Part shown: positions 25,182 through 31,655 of the stretch, piece after piece
Position numbering within the stretch: position 1 is the stretch's first letter
Layout of the letters: the number at the start of each line of letters is the position of its first letter
Source of the DNA: a virus
Lineage: Duplodnaviria > Caudoviricetes
Length of the DNA: 35,451 nt
Strand: one strand, 5' to 3'
Virus record (IMG/VR): IMGVR_UViG_3300035006_000009
Location: 1 to 35,451 of that record
Notes under the pieces: model-generated
The model's input: the letters and a program-made list of their open reading frames with translations, nothing else
Database searches by the model: none
What the model was told of the DNA's origin: nothing
Translations under genes and position numbers: made by a program

Positions 25182-26675
25182 ATGATCGCAGGCGCCTACG
25201 ACTGGACCGACGACATGCTCAAGATCAAGAGCATGCAGAATAAGTTCCGCGACAGCTTCAACGGCACGGAGATCAACCCGGCGCGCTGGGAGATCGAGGC
25301 GACTGGAGGCGGCATCACGCACACCGTGGCAGAGGGCGCGGTGACCATCTCCACCGGCACGACGCTCGACGATGAGCTGACGCTCACCAGCCGGACCACC
25401 TTCACCATCCCGCTGCGGGTCATGGTGGCGGTGAACATGAGCCAGCGCATCGTCGGCCAGTCGGTCTGGCTCGAGCTGGTCAGCATCGATCCCACCACCG
25501 CCCAGCCGGACGGACGCAGCGCCGCGGCCTGGCGGCTGGATGGCGCCAGCGCGACGCTCGCGAACTACGAGGTGCAGAGCGAGGGCGCCCCGCGCCTCGG
25601 CAGCGCCTCGGGCAGCACCATCCCGACCACCGCGCCGGCCGGCTGGTCGGTGCTGGAGCTCGAGCCGACCAACGACGAATGCTACTTCCACGGCCGTCTG
25701 ATCGACACCACGGCGGCGCGCTCGAACTCCTATGTCCGCCACCAGCAGATCCCGGAGCCGAACGCGCTGTATCGTTTTCGGATCCGCGTACGGAACCGGC
25801 AGTTCATCAGCGGCATCTCGGCGGTGGCGAACAACGGCGGTGGCGCGGTGCGCATCACGCGGGCCGCGCATGGCTTTGCCACCAATGACGTGGTCACGGT
25901 CGCCGACGTCTCGGGCGTGCTGGGGGCGAATGGGACCTTCACGATCACGGTCATCGACGCGAACAGCTTTGACCTGGTCGGCTCGACCTTCACCGGCGCC
26001 TATCTGAACACCGGCTGGGCCTCGGTCAGCCGGAACCTGGCGCCAGTCTCGAACACGGACATCAAGGTCCAGTTCGTCACCATCGCGGATTATGCCGAGC
26101 TCACCACCGAGATCACCGCCGGCCGCGGCCAGTCGGTCGCTGGCCAGGGGCTGGGCGTGAACGTGCTCAGCACCATCCCACCGGCGGTCACGCCGGTGGG
26201 TGGCCAGGCGCGCAACACGGCCGGCGCCGTGCCGGTGCTGGCCGCCACTGGCTACTCGGCCAACCCGATTGCCGTCACGACGGCGCGTGGTGTGGATCTG
26301 CTGGCGACGCTGATCGGCGCGCTGGTCACCAAGCCTTACGCCATCCCCGAGGCTGACTGGCAATACGCTGCCGCCGCGGGCGGAATCATCAACACCACCG
26401 ACGTGGTGCTCCGTGCTGCGGCAGCGGCCGGAATCCGGAATTACGTCACCTCGATCGACATCCGCAACGCGCATCCGACGGTCGCGACCGAGGTGGTGCT
26501 CAAGGACGGCGCGACGGTGATCTGGCGGCAGCTGCTGCCGGCCGCGATGGCGGCCCCGGTGGAGATCACCTTTCCCACGCCGCTGCGCGGCACCGCCGCC
26601 ACGGCCATGAACGTCGCCTGCATCACCACCGGCGCGCAGGTTTACGTCAACGCGCAGGGCTTCGCCGCGCCGTAA
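25182..26675 (+). CDS. Beta-rich putative virion protein (head spike/decoration?) with an FCCH-like insert
   Basis: 497 aa rich in T/A/G/V; AVRITRAAHGFATNDVVTVADVSGVLGANGTFTITVIDANSFDL resembles E1-FCCH-like domains in phage structural proteins. Confidence 0.7.
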   Translation: MIAGAYDWTDDMLKIKSMQNKFRDSFNGTEINPARWEIEATGGGITHTVAEGAVTISTGTTLDDELTLTSRTTFTIPLRVMVAVNMSQRIVGQSVWLELVSIDPTTAQPDGRSAAAWRLDGASATLANYEVQSEGAPRLGSASGSTIPTTAPAGWSVLELEPTNDECYFHGRLIDTTAARSNSYVRHQQIPEPNALYRFRIRVRNRQFISGISAVANNGGGAVRITRAAHGFATNDVVTVADVSGVLGANGTFTITVIDANSFDLVGSTFTGAYLNTGWASVSRNLAPVSNTDIKVQFVTIADYAELTTEITAGRGQSVAGQGLGVNVLSTIPPAVTPVGGQARNTAGAVPVLAATGYSANPIAVTTARGVDLLATLIGALVTKPYAIPEADWQYAAAAGGIINTTDVVLRAAAAAGIRNYVTSIDIRNAHPTVATEVVLKDGATVIWRQLLPAAMAAPVEITFPTPLRGTAATAMNVACITTGAQVYVNAQGFAAP

Positions 26676-26699: not shown

Positions 26700-28787
26700 A
26701 TGACCGAGCCGATCGAACCGGCGGGGCCCAGCTCCGTGCCGGATCCCGTCGCTGCGCCCGATCGAATGCCCACCGCTGGGCAGTCGATCACCGCCTGCCG
26801 CGCCCTGGCCGCACCGGTCACTGTCAATCGCGCGGCCCGCACCGTCGAGGTAGTTTGGTCCACCGGCGCCCGGGCCCGCAACTTCGTGCCGCCCTATGGG
26901 CCGATCCTCGAAGAGCTCGACATGGCGCCCTCCGCGGTGCGCATGGACGCGCTCCGCTCCGGCCGCGCGCCGGTGCTGGACACGCATCGCCGTGCCGGGA
27001 CGCGCGACGTGCTGGGCCGCGTCACCGCCGCCCGGCTCGAAGCCGGCCGCGGCTACGCCACGCTCCAATTCAGCGGCGCCGACGACGTGGAGCCGGTCTG
27101 GCAGCGCGTCGCTGACGGCACGCTGCAGTCTGTCAGCGTCGGCTACCGCGTGCACCGCTACGACCCCCGGCCCGACGCCAGCACCGGCCAGACCATCCAC
27201 CGCGCCGTGGACTGGGAGCCCTACGAGATCTCGATTGTGCCCGTCCCCGTGGACGGTCTGGCCGTGATCCGTGGTGAGGGGGATCAAGGCGCCCGCGCCA
27301 CCGCCATCGAACCCGCCCTGATTGAGGAAACCACCATGCCCGAGACGACGCCGGCTCTGCCGGATCCCGCGCCGGCGCCGCCCGCGCCGCCCACCATCCC
27401 GCACCAGGAGATCCCCGTGACCACCACAGCCCCGCCCGAGCCCACGCGCGCCGCGCCGCCCGCGCCCGACCTCGATGCCATCCGCGCCGAGGCCGAGCGC
27501 GCCGCCGTCGAGCGCATCGCCGGCTACGAGCCGGTGCTGGCCGCCGCCCGCGGCCTGGTGACCGCCGACATGCTCGACACCATGCGCGAGGCCGCCATCC
27601 GCGACCGCGTCAGCCCCGAGGTGCTGCGCGGCCGGCTGTGGGAGGCCTTCACCAGCGGTGCCGCGCGGCCCTCCCTGCCGGCGCGCCCCGACACCGGCCC
27701 GTCCAACGAGGATCCGTCGCAGCTCCTCGACGCCATGGCCGAGGCGCTCGCCGCCCGCTCCATGCCCGGCTACCAGGCCCCGCCGACCGGCCGCCACACC
27801 GAGTTCCTCGGCTGGCGCCCCTCCGACATGATCGGCGAGCTGCTCCGCGCCCGCGGAGAGCGCAACGTCCCGCGCAACCCGACCATCCTCGCGGAACGCG
27901 CCTTCCACACCACCTCCGACTTCCCGGCGCTGCTCTCGGCCGCGGCGAACAAGATGCTTCTGGCGGCCTATGCGCCGGCCGCGCCGACCTACCGGACGCT
28001 GTTCCTCCGCCGCGACTTCCGCGACTTCAAGCCGCACCGCCACCTGCGGGTCGGCGACTTCCCGACGCTGCTGCCCCTGTCGGAGAATGGTGAGGTCCAG
28101 GCCGGCACCATGTCCGAGAGCCAGGAGCTGGTCTTCCTGCAGACCTTCGCGCGGCGCATCCGCGTCACGCGGCAGATGCTGGTGAACGACGATCTCGGCG
28201 CCTTCACCGACTTCGCCAGCATGATCGGCCGGCGCGTCGCGGACTTCGAGAACGCGACCGCCTACCAGCTGCTGAATGCGGCGAATGGCGACGGCCCGAC
28301 GCTCATCACCGGTGCCGCGGCGGTGTTCGGCACGGCGGCGGCGCGGGCGAACAAGGCGGGTGCGGGCACCGCGCTCGACCTGCCGAACCTGGCGCTGGGC
28401 CGTGCCGCGGTGATGCGCCAGAAGACCCTCGACGGCCTGCCCATCGCCGTCGGTGCGCAGATGCGCCTGCTGGTTGGGCCAAACCAGGAACTCGCCGCGC
28501 GGCAGCTCACTGTCTCGGTCCAGGCGACGCAGACCAGCAACGCCAACGTCTATGCGGGCTTCGTGCAGCCGCTGGTGGAGCCGCTCATCCCGGCGAACCG
28601 CTGGTACCTGTTCTCGGATCCGCTGGCGGCGCCGGTCTACGTCTACGGCTACCTGAACGGCGCCGAGGGGCCGCAGGTCACCACCGGCAATGTCCAGGGC
28701 GTAGACGGCGTCGAGGTCAGCGTGATCTTCGACTTCGGTGTCGGCGCCATCGACTGGCGCGGCGCCTGGTTCAATCCGGGCACCTGA
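26700..28787 (+). CDS. Prohead protease - major capsid protein fusion
   Basis: PVLDTH, VSVGY, EISIVPVP (HK97-type protease); Pro-rich scaffold-like linker; HTTSDFP, DFK, NDDLGAF, DFGVGAIDWRG (capsid). Confidence 0.95.
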   Translation: MTEPIEPAGPSSVPDPVAAPDRMPTAGQSITACRALAAPVTVNRAARTVEVVWSTGARARNFVPPYGPILEELDMAPSAVRMDALRSGRAPVLDTHRRAGTRDVLGRVTAARLEAGRGYATLQFSGADDVEPVWQRVADGTLQSVSVGYRVHRYDPRPDASTGQTIHRAVDWEPYEISIVPVPVDGLAVIRGEGDQGARATAIEPALIEETTMPETTPALPDPAPAPPAPPTIPHQEIPVTTTAPPEPTRAAPPAPDLDAIRAEAERAAVERIAGYEPVLAAARGLVTADMLDTMREAAIRDRVSPEVLRGRLWEAFTSGAARPSLPARPDTGPSNEDPSQLLDAMAEALAARSMPGYQAPPTGRHTEFLGWRPSDMIGELLRARGERNVPRNPTILAERAFHTTSDFPALLSAAANKMLLAAYAPAAPTYRTLFLRRDFRDFKPHRHLRVGDFPTLLPLSENGEVQAGTMSESQELVFLQTFARRIRVTRQMLVNDDLGAFTDFASMIGRRVADFENATAYQLLNAANGDGPTLITGAAAVFGTAAARANKAGAGTALDLPNLALGRAAVMRQKTLDGLPIAVGAQMRLLVGPNQELAARQLTVSVQATQTSNANVYAGFVQPLVEPLIPANRWYLFSDPLAAPVYVYGYLNGAEGPQVTTGNVQGVDGVEVSVIFDFGVGAIDWRGAWFNPGT

Positions 28788-28877: not shown

Positions 28878-29225
28878 ATGCGCAACTATGTGCAGCCGGG
28901 CGACAGCCTGGCGCTCGCCGTCCCCTATGCCGGCGGCGTCACCTCCGGCCAGGGCGTCCTGGTCGGCGCGCTCTTCGGCGTGGCTGCCGTCGATGGCGTG
29001 CAGAACGCCGTCATCGAATGCCAGACCAAGGGTGTGTTCGACATCACCAAGGAGCCGGCGCTGGCGATCACCGCCGGCGCGCGCCTCTTCTGGGACAACA
29101 CCAACCGCCGCCTCACCACCACCGCCACAGGCAACTTCCAGGTGGGCCTCGCCACGGTGGCGGCGCTGGCCGCGGACGCCACCGTCCGCGCCGTGCTGCT
29201 GCGTGTCCCGGCGGCCGGCGCATGA
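28878..29225 (+). CDS. DUF2190-family capsid cement protein
   Basis: MRNYVQPG...GVTSGQGVLVGALFGVA...GVFDI; follows capsid gene. Confidence 0.9.
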   Translation: MRNYVQPGDSLALAVPYAGGVTSGQGVLVGALFGVAAVDGVQNAVIECQTKGVFDITKEPALAITAGARLFWDNTNRRLTTTATGNFQVGLATVAALAADATVRAVLLRVPAAGA

Positions 29226-29251
29226 GACACCCTGTGTCCAGCCTAATGTTG

Positions 29252-30457
29252 TCAGGCGGCGATTTTGACGGCGCTTGCGTGCTGGCTGGGGTCGTAGGTG
29301 TTGCCGTCTTTCCAGGCGCGCCAGAGCACTCGGACCCAAGCGCGTGCGAGGATGCGGATGGCATGGGGGTGCTTGCAGCCGCGTGCCTTTGCCTTGGCGT
29401 AGATGTCTGCGGCCCAGGCCGAGGCGTGTCGGGAGTTGTCGGCGAAGCGGGTGACGGCGAGGCGCAGGTTCTTGTTGCAGGCCCATCGGAAGACGACGCC
29501 GCGGGATTTGCCGGAGGCGTGTGTGACGGGGCAGACGCCGGCCTCGGCGGCGAGTTGGTCCTCGGTGGGGAAGCGTTCGCGGATGTTGCCGAGTTCGGCG
29601 AGGATCCCTGCTGCGCAGATACGGCCGGCGCGCGGGAAGGACATGACGATCCTGCCGTCGGGCAGTTCGGCGACGGCATGCTCGATGCGCGACGACAGCT
29701 TGGCGATCTCGGCGACGAGGCGTTCGAGGATGGCGGCCAGCGCGCGGGCGAGTTCACCCCTGGCGTCGGCCTCGGCGTCCTCGGCCAGGCCGGTGGGCGC
29801 GGCGCGGAGGCGGGCGAGCAATTCGGCGGCGGAGCGTCGGCCGCAATAGGCGTGCTGAGCCAGGAAGCTGGCCAGGCGTTTCTCGCCCAGGCGGTTGGCG
29901 CTGTCGGGCGTTGGATAGCGGCTGACGAAGGCGAGCGCGATCGGGCTGTCGATGGCGGCGAAGATGGCAGCAGCACCCGGCCAGAAGCCTTCGAGCAGGC
30001 TGCGCAGCTGGTTGGCGAGTGCGATGCGCTGGGCGACCAGGTCGTCGCGGCCGCGGACCAGCGCGCGGAGTGCCTTGATGTCGTCGGAGACGGGCATGAG
30101 GGGACGGAAGCGGTGCCCGTCGGTGCGCAGGATGTCGGCGAGCATGAAGGCGTCGCCCGGGTCGGACTTGCCGCCGGCGGCGCGATATCGAGGTCGGCAT
30201 GCTTTGACGACATTGGGGTGGATCGGGATCACCGGATGGCCCGCTTCGACGAGCGCATCGACGATGAGACCAGAGGGGCGCTCGATGGCGATGGGCAGTT
30301 CGGCCGGCGGGGCCACGCGCTTGAGGCAGGCCAGCATGTCGGCGAGGCCCGCCGCATCGTGGCTGACCTCGATACGGGTGACGAGCTGACCGGCGCCGTC
30401 GATGACGCAGACGGCATGGCTGGCGCCGCCCCAATCCAGACCTCCGTGAAATGGCAT
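29252..30457 (-). CDS. IS110-family transposase/bridge recombinase (401 aa)
   Basis: RuvC-like DEDD (GLDW, AIE, KSDPGDA); C-terminal Tnp domain with HASGKS serine; GAGGAG before ATG 30457. Confidence 0.97.
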   Translation of the reverse strand: MPFHGGLDWGGASHAVCVIDGAGQLVTRIEVSHDAAGLADMLACLKRVAPPAELPIAIERPSGLIVDALVEAGHPVIPIHPNVVKACRPRYRAAGGKSDPGDAFMLADILRTDGHRFRPLMPVSDDIKALRALVRGRDDLVAQRIALANQLRSLLEGFWPGAAAIFAAIDSPIALAFVSRYPTPDSANRLGEKRLASFLAQHAYCGRRSAAELLARLRAAPTGLAEDAEADARGELARALAAILERLVAEIAKLSSRIEHAVAELPDGRIVMSFPRAGRICAAGILAELGNIRERFPTEDQLAAEAGVCPVTHASGKSRGVVFRWACNKNLRLAVTRFADNSRHASAWAADIYAKAKARGCKHPHAIRILARAWVRVLWRAWKDGNTYDPSQHASAVKIAA

Positions 30458-30493
30458 GTGCTGGGCTCCTCGGGTTGCGATAGGCTCACCCAA

Positions 30494-30700
30494 GCCGGGA
30501 GATCACGCGGATCGCTCACTGACAGGCGCTCTGGCCGGCAAGCACTGGCGCTTCACCCTGTGGTCCGTCGGTATCTCCCGGCACCTGCCGCGCGGCGGGT
30601 CTCATGCGGGCCGTCCAGCGGCAAGCGACGCTGGCCGTCACGGCAGGGGCTCGGGCTGTCAGACACTACGCCGCTACGCGGCTCCGCGCCCAACAGCCCG
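30494..30700 (-). ncRNA. Predicted IS110 bridge RNA (5' stem-loop, target-binding loop, donor-binding loop)
   Basis: Stems 30652-30659/30693-30700, 30584-30596/30634-30647 and 30494-30503/30573-30582; internal loops match target and donor sequences; G-U pairs favour the minus strand. Confidence 0.85.
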
Positions 30701-30711
30701 AAGGTGCACCA

Positions 30712-31350
30712 GTGAGCCTCGATCCCAAGGCCACGCGGGGCTATCGCAATCGCAACCCGGGCAACATCGAGCACGTCTCGGCCAACAAGTGGCAGGGACT
30801 CGCCGAGCCGCCGTCGGACGGACGCTTCTGCCGCTTCACCAGCCACGAGTTCGGCATTCGCGCGCTCGCCGCGCTGCTGGTCACCTATCAGGACCGGCAC
30901 AAGCTGCGCACACCGCGGGCGATCATCGAGCGCTGGGCGCCCAAGGTGGAGAACGATACCGCGGCCTATGTCGCGGTGGTGGCGCGGCGGATTGGCGTCG
31001 GGCCGGATGATGCGATCGACCTGCATCGGCACGATCACCTCCGGCCGCTGGTGGAGGCGATCATCCACCATGAATGCGCCGGGCTCGCCTATCCGGCCGC
31101 GGTGATCGACCGGGCCCTCACGCTCGCCGGGGTGCCGCCTGCGCCGCCGGTGACGCTGCGGGAGGTGGCAGCCATCACCGGCACCGGCCGCGGCGCCGTG
31201 CTCGTTGGGGCGGCAGGCATCGCCACCGCCGTGGCGCAGGCCGCCCCCGCTATCCAGGCGCTGGGCACGCTCGCACCGGCGGTGGCCATCGCGGTCATCG
31301 TCGCCGCGGTAGTCGGCGTGCTCGCCTGGCGGCTGCGGCGCCCAGCATGA
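30712..31350 (+). CDS. Lysozyme-like protein (endolysin or virion lytic protein) with hydrophobic C-terminus
   Basis: RGYRNRNPGNI, GIRAL, IIERWAP..ENDT..Y, IIHHE motifs; start GTG partly supplied by the IS. Confidence 0.75.
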   Translation: MSLDPKATRGYRNRNPGNIEHVSANKWQGLAEPPSDGRFCRFTSHEFGIRALAALLVTYQDRHKLRTPRAIIERWAPKVENDTAAYVAVVARRIGVGPDDAIDLHRHDHLRPLVEAIIHHECAGLAYPAAVIDRALTLAGVPPAPPVTLREVAAITGTGRGAVLVGAAGIATAVAQAAPAIQALGTLAPAVAIAVIVAAVVGVLAWRLRRPA

Positions 31351-31655
31351 ACGCCTTCGCCGCGGCCATGGACGCGCTGGCGGCGGATCCGAACATCGGC
31401 ACGGATGCAGCCTACCGGGCCGGCGGGACCGGGGCGCCTGTGTCGCTGCGTGTGGTCCGCTCGGCGCCGGACCGGCTCGGCGATGCCTTCGGCACCAGCG
31501 TGACCCAGGCCAGCGACGTGCTCACGGTGGCGATCGCCGTGCTGCCCGCCGTGGACGCGGACGACACCTTCACCCTCGGCGCCGACACCCTGATCGTCCA
31601 GCACGCCGAGCGGGACGCCGCGGGCATCGCCTGGCGCGTCTTCTGCCGCCGATAG
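31347..31655 (+). CDS. Head-tail joining (gpFII-like) protein
   Basis: ATGA overlap; about 100 aa beta-rich; position before tail completion genes. Confidence 0.7.
   Translation: MNAFAAAMDALAADPNIGTDAAYRAGGTGAPVSLRVVRSAPDRLGDAFGTSVTQASDVLTVAIAVLPAVDADDTFTLGADTLIVQHAERDAAGIAWRVFCRR

Follow-up and report, generated by a model that had tools for sequence, protein, structure and literature searches.

An IS110-group element at a stop/start overlap in a phage operon: a loosely read RNA guide and a reverse strand probably laid out for translational read-through

The stretch of DNA analysed here (the window; 35,451 nucleotides, positions 1 to 35,451 of virus record IMGVR_UViG_3300035006_000009) contains what we consider likely, from its sequence and from comparison with relatives, to be an intact IS110-group element that was inserted at a loosely matched overlap between the stop codon of one phage gene and the start codon of the next, and whose reverse strand is laid out for read-through and restart of the displaced gene. 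The element, its recombinase, the two flanking genes and the frames that connect them are as follows.

29225..30716, minus strand: IS110-group insertion sequence, both CT cores counted (1490 bp with one core).
29252..30457, minus strand: intact bridge recombinase of 401 amino acids (residues D8, E59, D99, D102 and S315).
28878..29225, plus strand: upstream phage gene, head decoration/cement protein (PF09956, phrog_122), which has kept its own stop codon.
30712..31350, plus strand: downstream phage gene, endolysin-like (phrog_873, E 4e-56, residues 3-203), which now starts at the element's GTG.
29222..30715, plus strand: stop-free antisense frame of 497 codons, hed-like, running from the displaced ATG across the whole element to the TGA at 30713-30715.
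30700..30715, plus strand: end of the element read outward, with GAAGGTG (Shine-Dalgarno-like), 5 bases, and GTGA, a new start codon that overlaps the stop of the antisense frame.

The boundaries of the element were fixed by an empty homologous prophage site in locus L048 with an identical 15-mer, where a single CT stands in place of the two CT cores (30716-30715 and 29226-29225). Joints from 29222 to 30713 that skip 1490 bases were present in runs X2 and X6, with joint sides of 62 and 43 bases, and in run X1, which may be the source and is not independent, one unbroken contig spans the element. A second phage variant, ~90-93% identical, occurs in run X1 beside the exact sequence on both flanks (28600-28736 and 31014-31400). 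No second copy of the exact element was found, and all statistics given here therefore come from relatives; L081 represents this very insertion, flanks included, and was counted together with this copy. Plasmid matches H1, H4, H6 and H14 were obtained, H1 without the 5' end of the element. The surroundings in this virus record are lambdoid head and tail genes on the plus strand, and between the portal and capsid genes lies an open reading frame of 497 amino acids (25182-26675, plus strand) with only a weak match to E1_FCCH, below the cut-off.

The recombinase contains the Pfam domains PF01548 and PF02371 and scored 188 bits with NF033542 (cut-off 140). Its residues D99, D102 and S315 align with D102, D105 and S241 of IS621, which identifies both a DEDD RuvC-like and a Tnp serine active site; E59 aligns with the corresponding Glu of ISCro4, and D8 was placed by motif only. 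The non-coding ends measure 259 bases (5') and ~25 bases (3'), terminal inverted repeats are absent, and CT is found at both junctions, as elsewhere in the IS110 group. Together with a two-loop RNA and the covariation of its guides with target and donor, described below, this makes the element an IS110-group bridge element on every feature that its sequence allows to be tested.

We placed the predicted bridge RNA (fold z -3.4) in the 5' non-coding end. A two-loop consensus built from 20 relatives contained compensatory changes in 18 of 44 pairs (RNAalifold), with the donor-loop guide columns partly drawn as paired because they hardly vary, and the region had no match in Rfam. The elements of the RNA, and the target and donor sequences that they would recognize, are listed below.

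30497..30705, minus strand: predicted bridge RNA, a 5' stem-loop followed by two loops (outer limits predicted).
About 30648-30583, minus strand: target-binding loop, from fold and consensus.
About 30578-30497, minus strand: donor-binding loop, from fold and consensus.
30624..30632, minus strand: left target guide AGCGUCG-CU, which matches its own site better than the sites of others.
30601..30608, minus strand: right target guide CGCAUG-AG, corresponding to the start codon plus the overlapping stop; positions 3-5 covary with sites, and 6/6 match here.
30599..30600, minus strand: target-loop handshake bases AC, complementary to donor positions 6-7 (GT) and essentially invariant.
30552..30559, minus strand: left donor guide AGGGUG-AA, which pairs with donor positions 1-6 but not 7-8 here and covaries with the donor in relatives.
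30515..30521, minus strand: right donor guide CAGUG-AG, which tracks the left end in relatives (CAAUGAG/CTCATTG, UGAUGAG/CTCATCA).
30513..30514, minus strand: donor-loop handshake bases CG, the first covarying with target position 7, the second not following position 6.
30717..30723, minus strand: left target ATCGAGG, 4/7 to the guide; on the plus strand, codons 2-4 of the downstream gene.
29219..29224, minus strand: right target CATGCG, 6/6; on the plus strand GC-ATG, where the original start codon overlaps the TGA at 29223-29225.
29227..29233, minus strand: left donor AGGGTGT at the 3' end of the element, read from the sequence.
30714-30710, minus strand: right donor CACTG, within the element end 30700..30715.

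A register shifted by 2 bases was considered for the left donor guide and rejected; the guide occupies its usual register, and an invariant AC stands before it. The 14-bp donor is enclosed by a 3-bp inverted repeat, CAC and GTG (minus strand; 29234-29236 and 30707-30709), and the AC before the left donor guide matches this repeat. In L067, L070, L073 and L074 guide and donor disagree at one inner position of the left donor guide, one side having changed alone, and in L040 and L098 the left target guide ends in CG, not CU, despite a CT core (both ends were seen for L040). The RNA of L038 (1170-1500) has an extra stretch in the target-binding loop after the right guide, and its transposase is decayed.

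Relatives were collected as 39 loci from GTDB genomes (about half of that collection was covered), 1 from viral contigs, others by whole-genome searches, and 21 from metagenomes; the metagenomes were selected for the guide NGCGTCG, so that this guide is over-represented by design. We parsed 91 RNAs, of which 70 were distinct after merging of identical left flanks, with the ends of L015 and L067 corrected. We left out 7 Acidobacteriota rows, whose target is repeated, and 7 more in which the left flank was shorter than 30 bases, which gave 56 sites, this copy included. Clade members in this sample are mainly Alphaproteobacteria, and protein identity among the relatives in the tree is 57-87%; since the lineages share ancestry, the counts are not independent.

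An earlier note on this DNA had assigned the guide and handshake positions, and we found these assignments, which follow the IS621 model, to be correct. The right target guide with its AC gives the 10/10 match that was described there, 30599-30608 being the exact reverse complement of 29219-29228, which is the 3' (right-end) junction of the element and left only in window coordinates; by plain arithmetic, such a match at a structurally fixed place would arise by chance at about 1e-6. The programmed target AGCGTCG-CT-CATGCG and the actual ATCGAGG-CT-CATGCG likewise agree at 12/15 positions as noted, with mismatches at left positions 2, 5 and 6 and no G-U wobble.

Left-side mismatches, which the note had supposed to be tolerated, indeed are. 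None of the 56 sites matched its left guide at 7/7, and the totals were distributed as 0/7 at 1 site, 1/7 at 2, 2/7 at 5, 3/7 at 10, 4/7 at 16, 5/7 at 13 and 6/7 at 9, with a median of 4/7. By position, 12, 27, 32, 37, 24, 39 and 54 of the 56 sites matched. A left consensus resembling AGCGTCG was expected by the note at other insertion sites, and it was present in the 11 sites with this identical guide, which matched at 4, 4, 6, 10, 8, 7 and 10 of 11 by position (best 6/7, median 4/7) and on average at 4.45/7, compared with 2.16/7 at start-like background sites. Across 20 distinct guides, sites matched their own guide at 3.11 of positions 1-6 versus 1.88 after permutation (p 5e-5); by position, right 3-5 and left 2-7 followed their own sites (p 0.0002-0.013), and left position 1 was borderline (0.05). 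For the right guide, 41, 40, 40, 39, 34 and 19 of 41 sites matched at positions 1 to 6, and position 6 did not covary (p 0.28). These natural sites show strict reading of left position 7 and of the right guide with the core (CATG-type, positions 1-5), weak reading of left positions 2-6, and next to none of position 1.

Left and right matches traded off against each other (rho -0.51, n=36, p 0.001). The trade-off was pronounced in 10 identical-guide copies of genome G001 (rho -0.87, p 0.003) and weak without G001 (rho -0.29, n=26, p 0.075), and an additive pairing threshold would produce it. The sum of left and right matches was 8-10 of 13 at 31 of 36 sites, with 10/13, the value of this copy, the commonest; because typical totals lie in this range and 4/7 on the left is the median, the copy occupies an ordinary site and not a stray one, contrary to the claim that its target is unusually imperfect. 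One Acidobacteriota genome differs, with 10 copies (L019-L026, L030 and L034) of a 57%-identical relative, 1489 bp long, in a repeated non-coding element, where the left guide matches at 7/7 (6 copies) or 6/7 (4 copies) and the open antisense frame is lost; on the sequence, this group is a lifestyle switch within the clade. In genome G291, all six copies (L091, L097 and L099-L102) are located at the beginning of a Pfam-family frame, and their right ends are on other contigs.

In the IS621 model, changes at position 7 go together with changes of the first handshake base in the opposite loop, according to the accessible part of PMC11208158. Here, the first donor-loop base complemented guide position 7 in 37/37 RNA types (35 C:G, 2 G:C), and the two G:C switches (L008 and L010) arose independently on separate branches of the tree, as expected of handshake covariation. 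The second base complemented position 6 in 27/37 types; it remained G in all 4 types with a non-C position 6 and changed in 6 types with an unchanged C, and, as it fails to track the guide, it cannot serve as independent evidence for C at position 6. The bases CG that the note used to cross-check the left guide are thus present, but as evidence they are weak: the second is the only one bearing on the mismatch here, and the first agrees with the programmed and the real site alike. The target-loop AC was present in 36/37 RNA types, opposite GT in 30/32 (with one AT and one parse offset), and because this pair is nearly invariant it represents conservation, not covariation, so that the target loop is uninformative on covariation. 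The handshake cross-check is already known, and the imperfect site is ordinary for the clade.

Read on the plus strand, the target is GGC-GCA-TGA / ATG-AGC-CTC-GAT, the stop/start overlap of two phage genes. Coding frames around the relatives were scored by a codon model for which 800 kb from two host genomes served as training data, and 259 motif-matched sites were the background. The upstream gene ended on the TGA at 18/29 sites versus 22/259 in the background (p 9e-11), stop and start occurred together at 12/27 versus 9/259, and an internal Met was found at 1/27 versus 42/259. The frame from the element's codon was the best coding frame at 32/49 sites (74/259 in the background); 17/49 left flanks and 11/29 right flanks fell outside predicted frames. 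Downstream frames of at least 40 codons, available at 46 of 56 sites, contained a Pfam family in 26 cases and none in 20; a Pfam family was also present in 16 of the 22 upstream frames with TGA and at least 60 codons (22 of 41). Many of these domains begin within the first 50 residues, and several frames form known operon pairs, with insertions flanked by EutB/EutC (L047), VirB8/CagX (L010), CagX/TrbI (L040) and PqiA/MlaD (L001). The element of L008 (1242-2731) lies on a DAHP-synthase-family/cytidylyltransferase junction, with a guide that is off the consensus and still matches at 6/7; we take the flanking genes to be kdsA-kdsB-like and usually essential. These elements thus lie, as IS900 does, at the signals for translation initiation and in antisense orientation to the host gene. 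Survivor bias, which is inseparable from targeting in these data, may inflate the junction enrichment.

The antisense frame extends over the whole element for 497 codons, as in the hed frame of IS900, for which Doran 1997 is reportedly cited. Its product had no family in NCBIfam or PHROG. Among 34 distinct complete elements 28 were in frame and 25 fully open; grouped at 95% identity into 29 lineages (with the L014/L031 cluster scored by L014, as L031 has 3 stops), 24 were in frame, 22 fully open, 2 open up to the penultimate codon, and 5 out of frame. The in-frame elements were 1484-1655 bases long, with 8 different lengths; L007, L009 and L073 are 153-165 bases longer (an extra 3' end in L007 and L009), and their antisense frame is still open. 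Among the elements that depart from this are the Acidobacteriota group that targets a repeat and L028, which has a guide reading CTG. In host genes, the antisense frame was open and in register in 40/132 (0.30), and the chances for the other parts were 0.21 (shuffled left ends) and 0.33 (frame); multiplied, these give about 2% per independent element, the lineages sharing ancestry. Antisense-stop codons were about 4-fold rarer in the elements (11/11,741) than in host genes (467/116,482).

The left ends supplied GTG (44) or ATG (12) at 56/56 sites. Duplexes were scored with the anti-Shine-Dalgarno motif; the value here was -6.2 kcal/mol, and duplexes of -4 kcal/mol or lower were found in 26/29 distinct ends, compared with 22% of random stretches and 56% of native contexts. 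As the Shine-Dalgarno-like bases coincide with the inferred -10 box of a bridge RNA promoter, their conservation has a second explanation. A simple scan of the linear region found no sigma-70 promoter and no terminator, and no circle joint was present among those listed in contigs of 4 runs. In the predicted circle, TGGACA (29240-29235, minus strand; TTGACA in several relatives) is located 17-18 bases before GCACCT/CACCTT (30706-30701, minus strand), and a circle-junction promoter is possible, whose -10 would overlap the Shine-Dalgarno-like motif of the other strand.

We weighed these observations against other explanations of the imperfect site. The earlier note had proposed that the preferred 15-bp target lies elsewhere, which would make this copy an off-target insertion. 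The 12/15 match and the leaning of sites towards the guide would agree with that, as would the repeated near-perfect target of the Acidobacteriota relative and, in the accessible part of PMC11208160, the occurrence of IS621-like elements mostly at 0-2 mismatches of a consensus. However, no site matched at 7/7 on the left among the 56 or among the 11 with the same guide, and the value here is the median. The perfect 15-mer was absent from the window (4 three-mismatch matches, 5.0 expected) and from 5 related genomes (7 one-mismatch matches, 4 in the control), G001 had no exact site for its own guide, and in viral contigs the 15-mer was no commoner than the reversed control (59 vs 61), the 59 matches falling in 39 unrelated clusters. 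On these sites and the sequences covered, this proposal is already largely refuted, and we regard it as very unlikely. Still less credible, and in our judgement extremely unlikely, is that the mismatches arose after insertion, or that a CCAGCG:CGCUGG hairpin ties up the left guide, CCAGCG having been suggested as the guide's alternative partner. The hairpin can form here, and the sites of such RNAs match slightly less (4,4,2,3,6 vs 6,4,5,5,4,6, read by eye), but it is possible in only 2/41 RNA types, has a pairing probability of ~0.10 against 0.53 for the conserved stem, and leaves two of the three mismatches outside; the same guide is scattered over the tree, and the L048 empty site is identical to the present flanks, which argues against later drift. 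A route in which the left target is irrelevant, and the right arm or donor-loop recognition alone chose the site, has been reported for IS621 (the accessible part of bioRxiv 10.64898/2026.08.31.748434); left matches of 0-2/7 at 8/56 sites, and the presence of CT-CA in both donor and target, are compatible with it. Because left positions 2-7 covary with the guide, position 7 matches at 54/56 sites and 4/7 match here, we consider this route distinctly unlikely as the origin of this copy, and it may account for a minority of sites such as L091 (0/7).

The layout of the reverse strand could also be a by-product of loose insertion at any GCTCAYG-like site, with other insertions purged and with the frame left open by GC-rich codon usage, without any function in read-through. 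The antisense frame is open and in register in 30% of long host genes, which would fit, as would the Shine-Dalgarno-like bases if they are promoter bases, the lack of a family for the frame's product, and the background sites, where better matches were not clearly more often starts (small numbers). Codon usage, however, does not explain the open non-coding ends or the in-frame length of 24/29 lineages at 8 lengths; antisense-stop codons are rarer than in host genes, and the lineage that lives away from gene junctions has lost the frame. Perfect phage guide matches, moreover, were on stop/start overlaps in 10/38 clusters, versus 4/133 for the bare motif in bacteria, a comparison confounded by phage versus bacterial gene packing. 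We therefore consider a mere by-product rather unlikely and prefer an element with a loosely read guide and a reverse strand suited to read-through.

By analogy with IS621, such an element would form a circle and enter its target by RNA-guided strand exchange at CT, followed by handshake pairing. The element sits in the host operon in antisense orientation, immediately 3' of the start codon; the upstream TGA is still in place, and the old ATG now opens the 497-codon frame that crosses the element and ends in GTGA. The GTG, behind the Shine-Dalgarno-like motif supplied by the element and in frame with the downstream gene, would then permit re-initiation, with transcription and translation presumably running through the element; loose targeting may be affordable since such insertions would be nearly neutral. 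We lean, by a modest degree, towards extending this to a widespread clade whose guides are directed at translational-coupling junctions and whose insertions are translationally transparent. An additive low-stringency guide would there find ATGA overlaps in operons of every kind, also essential ones; along a conserved antisense frame free of stops, ribosomes would cross the 1.5-kb element and re-initiate at a GTGA/ATGA overlap that the element itself has built.

The matches collected here constitute a natural, position-by-position specificity profile of a bridge recombinase far from IS621, which is useful for off-target prediction. They also connect insertion at stop/start overlaps with an RNA guide that can be read, in an element whose build seems to spare operons, and make the purpose of IS900-type hed frames directly testable; if true, the model would explain IS900-type 'hed' behaviour at the level of the guide and offer a natural tool for non-polar insertion. 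Our literature search, which covered the PMC11208160 supplements in part and had subscription papers and bioRxiv supplements outside its scope, found no paper joining bridge RNA guides with start-codon targeting or hed frames, and no such link was found in the accessible parts of the bridge-RNA literature, including bioRxiv 2025.05.14.653916, 2024.04.26.591405, 2026.08.14.744561 and 2026.03.19.712850 and PMC11187229.

According to the accessible parts of PMC11208160 and PMC11208158, the element shares with IS621 and ISCro4 (IS622) a DEDD and Tnp recombinase with a catalytic Ser, a two-loop RNA in the 5' end, a 7+CT left target guide, an 8-nt left donor guide, a CT core, covariation of the first handshake base with position 7, and a 14-bp donor between the arms of a 3-bp inverted repeat (CAC/GTG in this element). 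It differs in that its protein is distant (E about 2e-6), its right guide is read 5 bases beyond the core, and its donor right arm mimics the target (CT-CA-Y). Its left guide is also loose, with a median of 3 mismatches, whereas 'zero to two' are described in those parts for consensus targets, and its target is a translation junction and not a repeated palindrome. The L019 Acidobacteriota group resembles the REP-targeting IS110 elements of the ISPpu9/ISPpu10 type, as far as available descriptions of these go, in its repeated non-coding site and near-perfect match; this element and most of its relatives, in contrast, are without a repeated target.

In layout the element resembles IS900 of Mycobacterium avium subsp. 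paratuberculosis, for which the accessible part of PMC8141618 describes an IS110-family element of about 1.45-1.5 kb with a 400-aa transposase, insertion at translation initiation signals with genes rarely disrupted, and an antisense hed frame that spans the whole element and depends on host signals, as predicted here. The IS900 motif described there, CATG-N6-TCTCCTT, combines start codon and ribosome site; by eye, the listed right flanks of our relatives, which read CT-CATG, had no conserved TCTCCTT-like stretch, and we therefore describe the element as working like IS900 and do not file it as a member. In contrast to IS900, the guides of this element cover the start codon, the 3 bases that precede it and the three codons that follow; the crossover lies 3' of the start codon, the host ATG becomes the start of the antisense frame, and a new start codon and a Shine-Dalgarno-like motif come from the element itself.
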